Assembly: GCA_902521325.1 (NCBI GenBank)
Contig: CABYRE010000002.1
Coordinates: forward strand, 40,588-104,587
Direction: 5' to 3'
Length of the DNA stretch: 64,000 nucleotides
DNA from: an uncultured Alphaproteobacteria bacterium
GTDB lineage: Bacteria; Pseudomonadota; Alphaproteobacteria; HIMB59; GCA-002718135
In this document: positions 3,620 through 61,781 of the stretch, piece by piece
Layout of the letters: each line of letters starts with the position of its first letter
How positions within the stretch are numbered: the first letter of the stretch is position 1
Notes under the pieces: generated by a model
Database searches by the model: none
Told to the model about the DNA's origin: nothing
The model's input: the letters and a program-made list of their open reading frames with translations, nothing else
Program-made: the position numbers and the translations under genes

Positions 3620-4427
3620 CGAATTGAACTTCGCGTATAAACTGTTTAATTAAATTTAATACATTGTTCTCTGCTAAGCTTGCGTTTTCTAAAGTTTCTT
3701 GATGACTGAGTTTTGTTTTATTCATTCCTGCAGCTAAGTTTGTAATTACACTTATTCCAATCACAGGTAAGCTACAATGATTTGCAACTAATACCTCTGG
3801 CACTGTTGACATTCCAACGGCATTTCCACCAATTACTTTTAAGGCATTGATTTCAGCTGGTGTTTCAAAGTTAGGGCCTGAATACATGCAATAAATTCCT
3901 TCATATAATTTTTGATTCGTTTTTTTAGCTATATCAATTAATTGTTCTCTATAAAATTTATGGTATCCATCACTCATATCATGAAAGCGTGGGCCGTAAC
4001 TTTCTGCATTGGCACCAATAAGTGGATTAAAGCCACTCCAATTGATATGATCCTTAATTGCCATTAAACTACCTGCTGGCATATTCTCATCAAGACTTCC
4101 AGCAGCATTAGTTACAATTAAAAGTTTAGATCCAATATCTTTTAAAACACGTATTGGGGCTGCTAAACTTTGTGGGTTATGTCCTTCATAAATATGTGAT
4201 CTACCATACATGCAAACGACATTTAAATTATTAATTTTTCCTAAGACTAACTTTCCAGCGTGTCCTTTTACAGTTGGTTGAGGAAAATCTTCTAATTCCT
4301 CATATGATATAGACTCTATAATATCTTGATCATCAAAAAAATTTGTCAACCCACTGCCTAAAATTACAGCTACGTCTGGTGAATTATTGTTTGTTATTTC
4401 TAAAAATTTTTTAGATGATGGGAGCAT
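3597..4427 (-). CDS. Purine nucleoside phosphorylase (trimeric PNP/MTAP family).
   Basis: 276 aa. Contains GMSTVPEV and SGPNFETPAE. Overlaps deoA by 23 nt and cdd by 1 nt. Confidence 0.85.
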   Translation of the reverse strand: MLPSSKKFLEITNNNSPDVAVILGSGLTNFFDDQDIIESISYEELEDFPQPTVKGHAGKLVLGKINNLNVVCMYGRSHIYEGHNPQSLAAPIRVLKDIGSKLLIVTNAAGSLDENMPAGSLMAIKDHINWSGFNPLIGANAESYGPRFHDMSDGYHKFYREQLIDIAKKTNQKLYEGIYCMYSGPNFETPAEINALKVIGGNAVGMSTVPEVLVANHCSLPVIGISVITNLAAGMNKTKLSHQETLENASLAENNVLNLIKQFIREVQFDDSSRNN

Positions 4428-26056: not shown

Positions 26057-26173
26057 ACTAAATTTCCCCCTTAAATATGAATTATAGATATCTCATTGAT
26101 AACATTTTATTGTAAAAAAAATGCATTAAAAAATGAGATTATGGATAAATAATAGGATTTTTTATGGATAACT

Positions 26174-54065: not shown

Positions 54066-54652
54066 TTTTTTGAATATAAATAATCTAGCAAATTAAATAA
54101 AGGCAATCCCATAACATTAAAATAATCTCCTTTTATGCTCTCAATAATATTGGGCCCCAAGCTCTCTATTTGATAACACCCAACAGAGCTTAGTATTTGT
54201 TTACCTGTTTTTTTTAAGTATGTTGTTATTTCACTGTTATTAAGCTTTCTTATTTTAACCTGGGTTTTTTCGTAATTTTCCCAAACTTTAGAACCATTCA
54301 AACAAATAGTTAAGCCCGATACTATTAAGTGTGTCTTTCCTGATAGAGACTTGATTTTTTTTTGGGCTTTCTCAATAGAGTTTACTTTATCTAGAATTTT
54401 TCCATTGTGATAAATGACTGTATCACAGCCCAAAACAATCTTATTGGCATACAATTTTTTTATACTTACACTTCTTGCTTTTTCATAGGAAAGTTTTTTT
54501 GCAAAAATCTCAGGCTTTGTATTTCTATTAATAGTTTGTTTAATATCCTCTTCATTGCAATTTGGTTTTTTTTGTGTGAAATTTAATCCTGCATTTTTTA
54601 ATATTTTGTATCTAGATTTGCTTGAACTGGCTAATATAAATTTTTGGTGCAT
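54062..54652 (-). CDS. maf: Maf-like nucleoside-triphosphate pyrophosphatase.
   Basis: Contains FILASSSKSRYKIL, GCDTV and GCYQIE. I trimmed the track start from 54685 to the ATG at 54652 (MHQKFILASSS), where Maf homology begins. Confidence 0.8.
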   Translation of the reverse strand: MHQKFILASSSKSRYKILKNAGLNFTQKKPNCNEEDIKQTINRNTKPEIFAKKLSYEKARSVSIKKLYANKIVLGCDTVIYHNGKILDKVNSIEKAQKKIKSLSGKTHLIVSGLTICLNGSKVWENYEKTQVKIRKLNNSEITTYLKKTGKQILSSVGCYQIESLGPNIIESIKGDYFNVMGLPLFNLLDYLYSKK

Positions 54653-55074
54653 AAGTGTGTTAATAAAAGTTATAGTTATAAACACTATTAAATATAATTT
54701 GAATTTAAGAAATAGTTCTTTTGTTTTAAAAATGTGTTGCTAACAACTTAATAACTTGTCTGAATATTATAGGGTGGGTGTTAATATATTTATTATACAA
54801 AATTAATAACAAATTATTAGATATTTATTGCGTTGCAAATTATTTAAAAATAATAATTTTTTTTCAATATGCTTTAAATTAACATATTTGTTAGGGTTGT
54901 TATTCATATGTTGGTAAATTAAGGATGATACAATAATAAAGCAGTAATTAAGGTTTTTAACCTTACAACTAATACTACAATTAAATATATAAATTATATA
55001 TTTATTATTATTTTGACATTAACTTCAATTTTGATTATTAAAATATTTCATTTCTTAACCACCCCAACAACATT
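54653..55074. other. Candidate chromosomal replication origin (oriC). May also contain the rho promoter and leader.
   Basis: A 422-bp non-coding spacer, about 16% G+C over 54781-55020 by hand count. Transcription is divergent on both sides, the gene neighbourhood is the alphaproteobacterial ori-flanking one, and parS-like sites lie 2.4-2.6 kb away. There is no perfect DnaA box. Confidence 0.45.
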
Positions 55075-56331
55075 ATGAATCTACAGGAATTAAAAGGAAA
55101 AGAACCACAAGAGCTTTTAAAACAGGCAGACAAGCTTGGTATAGAAAACCCTTCATCACTTAGAAAGCAAGATTTGATGTTTGCAATTTTAAAAACAATT
55201 GCTGAAGAAGGTGAAATTATCACTGGTTTAGGGGTTATAGAAATTATGCAAGATGGTTTTGGTTTTTTAAGGTCTTCAGAGTCAAATTATCTTCCAGGAC
55301 CAGATGATATTTATATTTCTCCATCACAAATTAAAAAATTTAGCCTAAGAACTGGTGATAGCGTAGAAGGTGAAATCAGGTCTCCCAAGCAAGGGGAAAG
55401 ATATTTTGCTATAACTAAAATTAATAAAATAAACGGTCAAGAAACTGAATTAGTTAAAAATAGGGTTAATTTTGAAGATTTAACACCATTGTATCCTGAA
55501 GCAAGATTTAGACTTGAACAAGAAAAACCTACGCCGGATAATACAGAAAGAATAATTGATATTATCGCTCCTCTTGGAAAAGGACAAAGACAGTTGATAG
55601 TTGCACAACCGTTTACTGGTAAAACAATAATTATGCAAAAAATTGCTAATGCTATAACCGCTAATAGTCCTGACGCTAAACTGATTGTTCTGCTAATTGA
55701 TGAAAGACCAGAAGAAGTTACAGACATGCAAAGATCAGTTAAGGGTGAGGTAATTAGCTCAACCTTTGATGAGCCTGCTTCACGCCACGTTCAAGTTGCA
55801 GAAATGGTAATTGAAAAAGCTAAAAGACTGGTTGAATATAAACACGATGTTGTAATCCTTCTTGATTCAATTACTAGACTTGGAAGAGCTTATAATACTG
55901 TTGTTCCATCTAGTGGAAAAGTGTTAACTGGTGGTGTTGATGCTAATGCCTTACAAAGACCAAAAAGATTTTTCGGAGCTGCAAGAAATGTTGAAAAAGG
56001 CGGATCACTTACAATTATTGCTACTGCTTTAATAGATACAGGAAGCAGAATGGATGAAGTTATATTTGAAGAATTTAAAGGTACTGGTAATAGTGAAATG
56101 GTTCTAGATAGAAAACTTAGCCAAAAAAGAACTTACCCAGCTTTTGATATTGGTAAGTCAGGAACAAGAAAAGAAGAATTATTACTTGATAAAGACGAGC
56201 TTGGAAAAATCTTTATTTTAAGAAAAATATTAGCCCCAATGGGAAGTACAGAAGCCATGGAGTTCTTGTTAGATAAAATGAAAAATACAAAAACTAACAG
56301 CGAGTTCTTCCAAAGCATGGGAACTAAATAA
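55075..56331 (+). CDS. rho: Transcription termination factor Rho.
   Basis: N-terminal [12 protein letters not shown], plus an RNA-binding domain, the P-loop region [10 protein letters not shown], and ...[11 protein letters not shown].... Confidence 0.93.
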
Positions 56332-59573: not shown

Positions 59574-60179
59574 TTGGATAAAAGCTCAGTAATAAAAAAA
59601 TATAATCTCAGTGGAAAGCAAATAGATTTAATAGATAACTACATATTGAAGTTAAAAAAAAGCAACCAAATACACAATTTAGTTGGGCCTTCCACAATTG
59701 ATATTGCATGGGATAGACATATTAATGATTCATTGCAACTATCTGAATTTATTTCGAAAAAAAACGCATCAATAATAGATTTTGGCACTGGTGCAGGTTT
59801 ACCTGGGGTGATCTTATATATTTTTGGGTATACAAATATATTATTGATTGACTCTAAAATGAAAAAAATAAACTTTATTAAAGAATTCGCACATGAACAG
59901 AACTTAGAGATTAAAACTATTTGCACAAGGGTTGAGAAAATCAAAAATCAAAAATTTGATTTTATTATCTGCCGAGCTTTTGCTCCATTATTAAAACTAT
60001 TAGATTATTCACGTTTTTTTAATAAAAAAAATACATCACTGCTTTTTCTAAAAGGAAGAAGTGTTAAGAAAGAAATACATGATGCAAAAAAATCCTTTAA
60101 CCTTGAATACAAACTTTATCCAAGTCAAAGTGAGGGTGATGGGTATGTGTTAAAAATAAACAAATATAAAAAACTGTGA
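59574..60179 (+). CDS. rsmG: 16S rRNA (guanine527-N7)-methyltransferase RsmG (GidB).
   Basis: TTG start. Contains DFGTGAGLPG, plus synteny. Confidence 0.85.
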   Translation: MDKSSVIKKYNLSGKQIDLIDNYILKLKKSNQIHNLVGPSTIDIAWDRHINDSLQLSEFISKKNASIIDFGTGAGLPGVILYIFGYTNILLIDSKMKKINFIKEFAHEQNLEIKTICTRVEKIKNQKFDFIICRAFAPLLKLLDYSRFFNKKNTSLLFLKGRSVKKEIHDAKKSFNLEYKLYPSQSEGDGYVLKINKYKKL

Positions 60180-60949
60180 AAAAAATTATCTCTATATCCA
60201 ACCAAAAAGGTGGTGTTGGTAAAACAACAACCACAATAAACCTAGCCACTTCATTAGCTGCGGTGAAAAAAAATGTTTTAATTGTGGACGCCGATCCACA
60301 AGGTAATGCGAGTACAGGACTAGGGCTTTCTTATGATGAAAGAAAACCATCAATTTATGAAATGATTCATGAAAAGAAACTTTTAAAAGAAGGTATAAAA
60401 GAAACATTAATTCCTGGTCTTAAGATAATTGGAGCAAACACAGATTTAGCTGCAGCAGAAGTAGAGCTTACAAATTTTGAAAATAGAGAGTACATCTTTA
60501 AATCAATATTTGCAGAGATTAATAATTTTGATTTTATTTTTGTAGATTGTCCACCTGCGCTTGGTTTACTTACAATTAATTCACTAGTAGCTTCAGACAC
60601 CACACTAATTCCTCTTCAATCTGAGTTTTTTGCTCTTGAAGGTCTTTCAGCCTTAATGCAAACGATCAAACTAATTCAACAAAACTTTAATAAAGATTTA
60701 AAAATTGAAGGAATTTTATTAACAATGTTAGACAAAAGAAATTCACTAAGCTCTTTAGTTGAGAAAGACGTAAGGGAACATTTTGGAAACCAAGTATACA
60801 ACACAACTATTCCCAGAAATGTTAAAATATCTGAGGCTCCAAGCCATGGCAAACCAGCATTGGTATACGATACACAAGCCGCAGGCTCTTTGGCTTACAT
60901 TGAGCTTGCAAAAGAAGTAATTTTAAATCAGAATAAAAACTATGAATAA
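60176..60949 (+). CDS. parA: Chromosome partitioning ATPase ParA.
   Basis: Deviant Walker A NQKGGVGKTTT. GTG start overlapping the rsmG stop (GTGA). Confidence 0.92.
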   Translation: MKKIISISNQKGGVGKTTTTINLATSLAAVKKNVLIVDADPQGNASTGLGLSYDERKPSIYEMIHEKKLLKEGIKETLIPGLKIIGANTDLAAAEVELTNFENREYIFKSIFAEINNFDFIFVDCPPALGLLTINSLVASDTTLIPLQSEFFALEGLSALMQTIKLIQQNFNKDLKIEGILLTMLDKRNSLSSLVEKDVREHFGNQVYNTTIPRNVKISEAPSHGKPALVYDTQAAGSLAYIELAKEVILNQNKNYE

Positions 60950-61781
60950 AGATAACAAATTAGGAATGGGCTTAGGAGCTCTTCTATCAAGCACAAATAA
61001 TAACACTGATAGCAACAGTGGAATTCAAAAAATTAATATATCTCAAATAATTCCCAACCCCTCTCAACCAAGAAAAAATTTTAAAGATGAAGAACTTAAA
61101 GAGCTTTCTTCATCAATTAAAAACCAAGGATTGATTCAACCCATAATTATAAAACCAATAAAAGACGGTCAATATCAGATTATTGCTGGGGAAAGAAGGT
61201 GGAGAGCTTGTCAATTAAATGGAATGCATGAAGTAGAATGTGTTATTAAAAATTTAGATGACACCAATGTGTTAGAGGCCGCTTTAATTGAAAACATTCA
61301 AAGAGAGGACCTAAATGTTATTGAGGAGGCCAATGCCTACAAAGGATTAATTGATATTAAAGGCATTAACAATGAAAATCTTGCTAAACTAATTGGTAAA
61401 AGCCCAAGTCATGTTTCAAATATTCTACGCCTTTTAGAGCTTGATATAAAAATACAACAAATGGTAATAAGTGGTGACTTATCAATGGGTCATGCGAGAG
61501 CTCTTATCGGTGTGCCTGATGCTATTAATAAGGCCAAAGAAATAATTGATAAAAAACTTAGCGTAAGACAGATAGAAAAAATAACATCTGAATTTAAAAA
61601 AAATAGAACTAAAAAAATTTCAAAAGACCCAAATATAACTGATCTTGAAAAGGAGCTTTCAGACAAAATAGGTCTAAAAACATCCATCCAATTTAATGAA
61701 AATGGATCATCTGGCTCACTAACTCTTTATTACTCTGATTTAAATCAATTAGATGATTTAATGAAAAGGCTTAAGAAATAG
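60942..61781 (+). CDS. parB: Chromosome partitioning protein ParB.
   Basis: Contains QPRK.F, IIAGERRWRA and the HTH region. Confidence 0.92.
   Translation: MNKDNKLGMGLGALLSSTNNNTDSNSGIQKINISQIIPNPSQPRKNFKDEELKELSSSIKNQGLIQPIIIKPIKDGQYQIIAGERRWRACQLNGMHEVECVIKNLDDTNVLEAALIENIQREDLNVIEEANAYKGLIDIKGINNENLAKLIGKSPSHVSNILRLLELDIKIQQMVISGDLSMGHARALIGVPDAINKAKEIIDKKLSVRQIEKITSEFKKNRTKKISKDPNITDLEKELSDKIGLKTSIQFNENGSSGSLTLYYSDLNQLDDLMKRLKK

Follow-up and report, generated by a model that had tools for sequence, protein, structure and literature searches.

The 64-kb window analysed here, from an uncultured low-GC marine alphaproteobacterium of the HIMB59 lineage (contig CABYRE010000002.1 of GCA_902521325.1), carries between its divergent maf and rho genes a 422-bp spacer (54653..55074; all coordinates are positions in the window) that is probably a DnaA-dependent chromosomal replication origin. 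It is most probably a compacted, AT-shifted member of the type represented by Caulobacter Cori, homologous to Cori and to the origins between RP001 and hemE in Rickettsia and SAR11 (Pelagibacterales). On that reading it is most likely an expected feature in unusual form rather than a new type of element. The evidence is comparative: repeated DnaA-box-like sites are kept in position across diverged relatives, they are followed by a period-3 element and an unstable A/T run, and a collinear module is found in the origin spacer of another order.

Conserved elements of the maf-rho spacer

Relatives of the window's clade were taken from marine metagenome contigs obtained in a Maf scan (Maf 49-98% and Rho 80-100% identical). 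Nineteen non-redundant spacers form alignment A1, and a wider alignment holds 34 sequences. maf and rho are divergent neighbours in all 33 relative contigs that contain both genes, and the spacer between them measures 405-429 bp with a guanine-plus-cytosine (G+C) content of 15-21%, even where Maf is as low as 49% identical. To judge from a length that stays steady while Maf diverges this far, the spacer is under constraint. The alignment across relatives that the initial annotation had proposed does bring out conserved short motifs in the 19 spacers, conservation within A1 being confined to short blocks.

Box-like sites were scored against TTATNCACA, the consensus used for alphaproteobacterial origins (PMC1914354), and against the strict canonical box, TTATCCACA. 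The initial annotation had quoted three 9-mers with one mismatch as the only near matches, at 54676 (TTATAAACA), 54793 (TTATACAAA) and 54900 (TTATTCATA). All three are present, but there is one more that had been overlooked, TTATTAACA (54658-54666, minus strand), and the four are one mismatch away from TTATNCACA only, differing from TTATCCACA at two or more positions. The same annotation held that such matches would be expected by chance. The excess over chance is modest: dinucleotide shuffles of the spacer give 1.36 sites within one mismatch of TTATNCACA as against the four observed (p ~0.04), and 2.3 sites within two mismatches of TTATCCACA as against seven (p 0.004); the density of box-like sites in the window, which totals 70 in 64 kb and is below that of the window's own shuffles, predicts 0.46 sites for the spacer. 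WTAACA occurs 11.9 times per kb in the spacer and 2.2 times per kb in the whole window. Among words repeated over the 19 spacers, TTAACA and ATTAACA show the greatest excess, with 78 occurrences where 28.6 are expected (z 9.3) and 48 where 10.8 are expected. Positional conservation was taken as at most one mismatch at the aligned anchor, for which the mean over all spacer anchors is 0.9 of 19 relatives. Four sites (L1, L2, C1 and C3 in Table 1) are kept in place in 14-17 of the 19 diverged relatives, which is not what chance would give.

The logo around the repeated sites is TT[A/G]TTAACA, which reads as a DnaA box with TA rather than CC at positions 5-6. The sites, four strongly conserved 9-mers and about five weaker ones, also fit TTAT(T/A)AACA. 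The columns of L2 read TTGTTCACG in one relative (L134) and TTATTCACG in another (L136). C1 is TTGTTAACA or TTATTAACA in most relatives, within the palindrome TTGTTAACAA, and C3 is TTATTAACA in many and part of a palindrome, TTATTAACATGTTATTAA, in some. The pair of sites at 54900..54917 contains invariant ATGTT columns, and a SAR11 locus (L071) carries TTATTCACATAACATGTTGGTAAATT, in the same order. In a cross-clade alignment (A2) of the window's clade with SAR11 RP001-hemE spacers, the degenerate last site, TTTTTAACC at 54954-54962, falls in line with TTATTAACA (L129), TAATTAACA (L111) and TAATTCACC (L107), and with a perfect TTATTCACA in three SAR11 loci (L071, L061 and L056). Canonical boxes stand in the same alignment columns in other lineages (TTATTCACG in L136, TTATTCACA and TTATCCACA in SAR11), and by this alignment the 9-mers are AT-shifted variants of them. 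The suggestion that the initiator-binding sites would be non-canonical holds in that there is no consensus box; the sites appear, however, to be canonical boxes that have shifted towards A and T, not sites of a different kind.

Next to the last box lies a period-3 element that resembles an array of DnaA-trios. Its third-position A is invariant at 54968, 54971 and 54974 and present in at least 90% of sequences at 54977 (alignments A1 and A2). CAACTAC occurs 10 times in the 19 spacers against 0.5 expected, and the pattern ACTA[AC][AT]ACTA[CT]AAT is found, in 402 kb of low-GC sequence, only in the spacers of the clade and in the RP001-hemE spacer of SAR11 locus L056. An A/T-only run follows. Among all 40-bp windows in the 64 kb, the least stable is 54970-55009, with a nearest-neighbour free energy (dG) of -34.8 against a mean of -47.9 and a standard deviation (sd) of 3.8 (~3.4 sd), and the least stable 300-bp duplex window, 54748-55047, is also inside the spacer. 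A box cluster, with no perfect consensus box, and an A/T-rich candidate unwinding element next to the boxes are thus both present, as in oriC regions. In Bacillus and Helicobacter the unwinding region is laid out as a box, a GC cluster, DnaA-trios and an A/T-rich region (PMC8235120). The window resembles the oriC of Bacillus subtilis and Helicobacter pylori in its box of the form 5'-TTAT...ACA-3', a short C-containing linker, a period-3 array that includes CTA and an A/T run, all in the same order and polarity; this anatomy and the DnaA-trio model suggest that melting would take place at 54979-55014.

In the mechanism proposed, DnaA would bind the AT-shifted boxes (consensus TT(A/G)TTAACA), strong ones at 54658(-), 54676(+), 54737(+) and 54803(+) and about five weaker ones up to 54962. 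Starting at the weak box that ends this array, a DnaA filament would grow along the period-3 element (54966-54983) with one protomer to every three bases, and would melt the adjacent 36-bp run. Directly next to this run is the rho promoter, which points away from it and whose activity may aid opening through negative supercoiling in the manner of the hemE promoter in Caulobacter, where Cori has weak non-consensus boxes and transcription from the hemE promoter is required (PMC6393856). ParB on the two parS sites 2.4-2.6 kb away would then segregate the newly copied origins. Segregation of new origins by ParB and parS is established biology.

Table 1. Features of the proposed origin region and its surroundings (relatives: matches among the 19 spacers of alignment A1)
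Feature	Position	Strand	Evidence or remark
Whole maf-rho divergent spacer: proposed origin region, rho promoter and leader	54653..55074	.	Length, G+C, conservation, duplex instability
Box L1, TTATTAACA	54658..54666	-	15-17/19 relatives with <=1 mismatch; 6 bp from maf start codon
Box L2, TTATAAACA	54676..54684	+	14/19 relatives with <=1 mismatch
Box C1, TTGCTAACA	54737..54745	+	14-15/19 relatives with <=1 mismatch to TTATTAACA
Box C2, ATATTAACA, weak	54779..54787	-	5-6/19 relatives; conserved part is the TGTT core only
Weak box, TTATACAAA	54793..54801	+	7/19 relatives; TTAT nearly invariant
Box C3, TTAATAACA	54803..54811	+	14/19 relatives with <=1 mismatch; A157, C158 and A159 invariant
Box-like site, TTATTCATA	54900..54908	+	5/19 relatives; directly abuts TGTTGGTAA
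Box-like site, TGTTGGTAA (minus-strand reading TTACCAACA)	54909..54917	-	8-10/19 relatives match
Degenerate box adjoining candidate unwinding region, TTTTTAACC	54954..54962	+	4/19 relatives with <=1 mismatch
Period-3 element CAA CTA ATA CTA CAA TTA, resembling a DnaA-trio array	54966..54983	+	Conserved A every third base
Candidate DNA unwinding element, A/T-only, 36 bp	54979..55014	.	Longest pure A/T run in 64 kb
rho promoter: -35 TTGACA 55013-55018, 17-bp spacer, -10-like TATTAA 55036-55041	55013..55041	+	Alignment A1
Short rho leader with C-rich, G-free patch CCACCCCAACAAC	55046..55074	+	TTCATTTCT conserved; C-rich tail in all relatives
parS core TTTCACGTGAAA	57498..57509	.	Exact palindromic 12-mer, inside 3' end of mnmE
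Second parS core TTTCACGTGAAA	57689..57700	.	mnmE-mnmG junction
parA and parB partition genes	60176..61781	+	Pfam AAA_31/CbiA (parA); ParB_N/HTH_ParB/ParB_C (parB)

The junction in the window and in other Alphaproteobacteria

The spacer lies where Cori-type origins lie, at the junction of the maf block with the (hemE)-rho block. Cori has been mapped at this junction in Caulobacter, and the Rickettsia origin has been placed there (PMC1914354; PMC6393856). To determine the usual gene order in the class outside the window's own clade, maf, RP001 (DUF299), hemE, hemH, hemJ and rho were mapped on 80 alphaproteobacterial rho loci among the matches listed in a Rho scan (best Rho match 74%). The usual order in these listed loci is maf(-) RP001(-), the spacer, then hemE(+) [hemH] hemJ(+) rho(+), from which different lineages have lost different genes, so that the junction is RP001/hemJ in Bradyrhizobium, maf/hemJ in Rhodobacterales, RP001/rho in Bartonella and maf/rho in the window's clade and in one further locus, L014. 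Whatever flanks it, the junction spacer measures 260-580 bp in nearly all listed loci, is poor in G+C and usually contains TTATNCACA boxes. In about 20 of the 62 other listed loci a box lies on the minus strand no more than 30 bp from the start of the leftward gene, the position that L1 has in the window, and this box is often a perfect TTATCCACA; in sphingomonads a perfect TTATCCACA stands at the equivalent of L1.

Five SAR11 RP001-hemE spacers are collinear with that of the window: TTATTCACA...ATGTTGGTAAATT, a terminal box, ACAACTA(A/C)(A/T)ACTAC(A/T)AT and an A/T run follow one another in the same order, which amounts to sequence homology with the origin spacer of another order. Because this module is beside hemE in SAR11 and beside rho here, its elements follow the junction and not the flanking genes. 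The initial annotation had pointed to a conserved alphaproteobacterial origin neighbourhood from which hemE and RP001 are here absent; the 80 listed loci and the module shared with SAR11 agree with it. The SAR11 origin, itself a predicted one, further resembles the window in having TTATTCACA or TTATTAACA boxes (in a freshwater Fonsibacter, L044, TTATTAACA-type boxes only) and spacers of 15-23% G+C. Unlike the window, SAR11 keeps RP001 and the hemE-hemH-hemJ flank, has a spacer of 262-288 bp and retains perfect TTATNCACA boxes. Its Rho is 68-72% identical to that of the window, no nearer than the Rho of other Alphaproteobacteria.

One relative departs from the arrangement of the clade. In L108 (Maf 60% identical) maf does not face rho but lies behind co-directional genes of the ABC permease and SDR types, and the 173-bp gap upstream of maf (L108 2476-2648) is without the conserved boxes. 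This is either a rearrangement precisely at the junction or an assembly chimera. As the boxes of the L1/L2 side are missing where maf is parted from rho, they are not signals belonging to maf itself. Together with a module that follows the junction, this argues against ordinary promoter or operator sequences.

Comparison with the better known systems shows both what is shared and what has changed. Caulobacter Cori and the Rickettsia/Wolbachia-type origins (hemE-RP001, the latter DUF299/COG1806) have the same neighbourhood as the window, with maf-aroE-coaE-dnaQ on one side and rho-mnmE-mnmG-rsmG-parA-parB on the other, a G+C-poor spacer of 300-500 bp with several weak non-consensus boxes, an A/T-rich unwinding region on the hemE/rho side and an outward-firing promoter beside it. 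The window differs from them in being without hemE, RP001, hemH, hemJ and a CtrA site, and in a box consensus that has moved to TTATTAACA. Loss of flanks has precedents in Bartonella florencae (RP001/582 bp/rho) and in Rhodobacterales (maf/~400 bp/hemJ-rho), both with box clusters. These each keep one classical flank, whereas the window's clade and, independently as it seems, L014 have lost all of them. The hemE and RP001 flanks thus characterize the type specimens, not the function, neither gene being found in the 64 kb and other lineages having lost one or both.

L014 (single-amplified genome AG-325-J07, 28% G+C, Maf 32% identical) deserves a description of its own. Its maf faces rho across 273 bp (3728-4000), and this spacer contains TAATTCACA, TTATTCATA and TTATCTACA, then ACATACAACAACAAG and an A/T run. 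Compaction to maf/rho seems to have arisen there independently.

Within the window, maf starts at 54652 (ATG, minus strand) and rho at 55075 (ATG, plus strand). Assignments by Pfam and NCBIfam agree with the genes and the divergent layout named in the initial annotation. Left of the spacer the minus strand carries smr, a gene for a phage-type lysozyme, a Tim44-like gene, dnaQ, coaE, aroE and maf; right of it the plus strand carries rho, mnmE, mnmG, rsmG, parA and parB, beyond which a holA-like gene, a small open reading frame (ORF) and leuS lie on the minus strand. No hemE, RP001, hemH or hemJ was found within the 64-kb window, and maf and rho therefore flank the proposed origin directly. Neither a tRNA gene nor an Rfam match at the gathering score was found in the window. 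The G+C content is 19.0% over the spacer and 15.8% at 54781-55020, close to the 16% or so counted earlier by hand, as against 30.6% for the window.

The two parS-like sites reported 2.4-2.6 kb to the right of the spacer proved to be exact cores, kept in position in every relative whose locus extends that far, and parAB is ~5 kb from the spacer. Most of the alphaproteobacterial loci fetched (L011-L078) carry TTTCACGTGAAA cores at the mnmE and mnmG 3' ends. The copies are ~190 bp apart in the window's clade and ~1.9 kb apart in Rhodobacterales.

By length the spacer ranks second among the non-coding stretches of the window, as had been stated. The sole longer one, ~460 bp at ~656-1115, is AT-rich and lies upstream of a lipoprotein-like ORF cut by the left window edge. 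Within it falls the 100-bp duplex of lowest stability in the 64 kb (972-1071); no DnaA-box-like 9-mers were found there.

The rho promoter, strand composition and rival explanations

The right-hand end of the spacer is taken up by the rho promoter. TTTGAC (55012-55017) is invariant in all 19 spacers and the final A of TTGACA (55018) nearly so; the first two bases of the -10 element (T 55036 and A 55037) are invariant, and the -10 element of the clade is TA(T/A)TAA. TTTGACA occurs 18 times in the 19 spacers against 1.7 expected. In number of sites a promoter scan did not exceed shuffles, and it overlooked the conserved rho promoter, in which the last -10 base is not T. The promoter occupies the last ~60 bp before the rho ATG, which leaves a leader of ~30 nt and ~350 bp of spacer upstream of the -35 element; a long rho leader therefore cannot account for the spacer. 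The initial annotation had allowed that part of the spacer might be a rho promoter and autoregulatory leader, and of these the promoter is present, and the leader that it leaves is a short one.

Strand composition was analysed over 72.7 kb, made up of the window and 8.7 kb to its right from a 53.6-kb contig of the marine single-cell genome GCA_902514655.1 (L162), which encodes an identical Rho protein (the only exact copy on record) and is 99.9% identical to the window over the overlap. The model of plus-strand skew per gene had terms for gene orientation and for side as well as an intercept, and was combined with a breakpoint scan and permutations. GC skew had been put forward earlier as a check on the origin call. 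Run locally over this region, it gives a switch of orientation-corrected composition at the spacer, but of a polarity opposite to that of a textbook origin, the plus strand being richer in C and A to the right and richer in G+T to the left; no switch of origin polarity was found over the 72.7 kb. When keto skew is scanned at third codon positions, no breakpoint does better than the start of rho (F 33, permutation p <0.001); the values are negative in 15 of 15 genes to the right and positive in 11 of the 12 genes in the 7 kb to the left. At four-fold sites the signal is marginal (GC p 0.08, AT p 0.02, keto p 0.015), and at all third positions it is confounded by amino-acid composition, through two-fold codons, and by operon clustering, which permutation of single genes ignores. 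Near the spacer, genes read away from it encode soluble K/E-rich proteins, and several of those read towards it encode membrane proteins or a porin. Atypical skew has been noted in low-GC Rickettsiales and Pelagibacter (PMC2031905; PMC2099444). A search of the literature on SAR11-type origins or skew yielded only a 'manually identified' oriC and remarks on atypical skew.

The skew is the main evidence against the origin call, which for want of the expected polarity is probable and not proven. Other points weigh on the same side. There is no perfect TTATCCACA in the window, the lack of a perfect DnaA box having been reported already in the initial annotation, and no dnaA was found in the window by a search with signature motifs. 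The box closest to the proposed unwinding region is a poor one (TTTTTAACC), and the fit of the period-3 element to DnaA-trios is partial. The trio is defined as 5'-CTA-3' with a strictly conserved middle T (PMC8235120); where the model has at least three tandem CTA trios with an invariant middle base, here CAA alternates with CTA/ATA, the middle base is T in some triplets and A in others, and it is the third base that stays fixed. The window's trios are in this respect imperfect when compared with those of B. subtilis and H. pylori, and instead of their GC cluster of 4-5 bp there is only CC or CCTT.

The spacer could be an ordinary divergent promoter or regulatory region, in which the TTAACA repeats would be operators of a transcription factor or nucleoid protein and the origin would lie elsewhere, for example with hemE/RP001 or dnaA. 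A rho promoter is clearly present, L1 and L2 are no more than 32 bp from the start of maf, an expected place for promoter or translation signals, the local skew is without origin polarity, and TTAA-N7-TTAA is enriched across the clade (22 against 8.5 expected in the 19 spacers). Yet the SAR11 module adjoins hemE and not rho, the L1-type box adjoins RP001 and not maf in other orders, the maf of L108 does without the boxes, and canonical DnaA boxes occur at the aligned positions in other lineages. The TTAA-N7-TTAA sites have no fixed positions and none is in the window, and the ~350 bp upstream of the rho -35 element are beyond the need of a promoter. Taken together, these observations make a purely regulatory spacer unlikely. 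It is more doubtful still that the spacer is a relic of an ancestral origin, descended from that of Cori, with initiation now at another locus. A degenerate box next to the unwinding region, the want of a canonical box in the window and the anomalous skew polarity would suit such a relic, but a dead origin should decay, and here the length, four boxes, the period-3 element and the A/T run are kept at a Maf identity of 49%, with parS sites and parAB still adjacent.

That most of the spacer is a long rho 5' untranslated region, a Rho-dependent autoregulatory leader or some other structured RNA is very improbable. rho is autoregulated through its leader in other bacteria, and the ~25 nt before the rho ATG are C-rich and free of G. 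The invariant TTGACA at 55013-55018 and the conserved -10 element, however, place the transcription start ~30 nt before the ATG, so that the C-rich patch falls within a short leader; RNAalifold finds 0 pairs, the hairpin in the spacer is unsupported (see below) and Rfam gives no match at the gathering score. A literal reading of the skew switch, under the canonical rule of a leading strand rich in G and T, would make the spacer a replication terminus, since the orientation-corrected plus strand has more G+T on the left of the spacer and more A+C on its right. This can hardly be credited: parS, parAB, gidAB and rho mark an origin-proximal region and the junction is the origin site throughout the class (PMC1914354; PMC6393856), ~62% of coding sequence would face the forks head-on, and the skew itself is marginal at four-fold sites and confounded at other third positions.

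If the spacer is an origin, a bolder and rather speculative version of that reading can be put forward: that the DnaA of the clade, and of part of SAR11, has co-evolved with an AT-rich genome so that its working box is TTATTAACA and not TTATCCACA, and that the origin has become fused to the rho promoter. Were this true, initiation would depend on, or be tuned by, transcription of the gene for a global termination factor, and the reversed skew polarity might reflect an atypical replication-associated mutation bias in streamlined genomes.

An origin at this place would be of use in several ways. It would give a testable map of boxes, period-3 element, unwinding run and promoter for an abundant uncultured marine group, and the position of the origin is required for peak-to-trough estimates of growth from metagenome coverage, for orienting and checking assemblies and for replicating vectors. 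It would also mean that the alphaproteobacterial origin stays at the maf/RP001-hemE/rho junction despite the loss of every classical flanking marker, and origin finders keyed to hemE, dnaA or perfect boxes would miss the spacer. To specialists the drift of the boxes to TTATTAACA, the loss of all classical flanking markers and the period-3 element common to SAR11 would be of interest, the series TTATCCACA, TTATTCACA, TTATTAACA at aligned positions being a natural experiment on the limits of DnaA-box drift in AT-rich genomes.

Other motifs

Of the features that the initial annotation had left unexplained, both exist as written. The hairpin at 54949-54965 is not conserved, pairing in 52% of cells as against 50% in shuffles, and was rejected as a structured RNA. 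The repeat TAGGGT(N0-3)TGTTA was rejected as a conserved element: TAGGGT is limited to close relatives, and only the TGTTA part, which belongs to box-like sites, is conserved (the TGTTA of the first copy is taken in by C2). RNAalifold was run over the whole 19-spacer alignment, and the search of Rfam returned only two sub-threshold matches with E-values at chance level.

CtrA-type TTAA-N7-TTAA is absent from the window's spacer, as had been noted, so that no CtrA site overlaps the proposed origin; in the relatives, where the motif is enriched, the sites are scattered. Sites for CcrM, IHF and Dam were looked for as well: over the 19 spacers GANTC is not enriched, the IHF consensus is enriched only marginally, and GATC is found 0 times against 6.2 expected from shuffles.

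The last ~25 nt before the rho ATG (55050-55074) keep their C-rich, G-free character in all relatives, despite the 19% G+C of the spacer. This patch could be a rut-like site for Rho autoregulation within a short leader, or it could signal translation, in a genome whose Shine-Dalgarno sites are not obvious.

Far from the spacer, two TTATCCATA 9-mers lie 23 bp apart on the minus strand (26140-26148 and 26163-26171), in a 117-bp gap between upp and a gene for a BMP-family ABC substrate-binding protein. The pair could serve as an operator, or as a site that titrates DnaA or is regulated by it.

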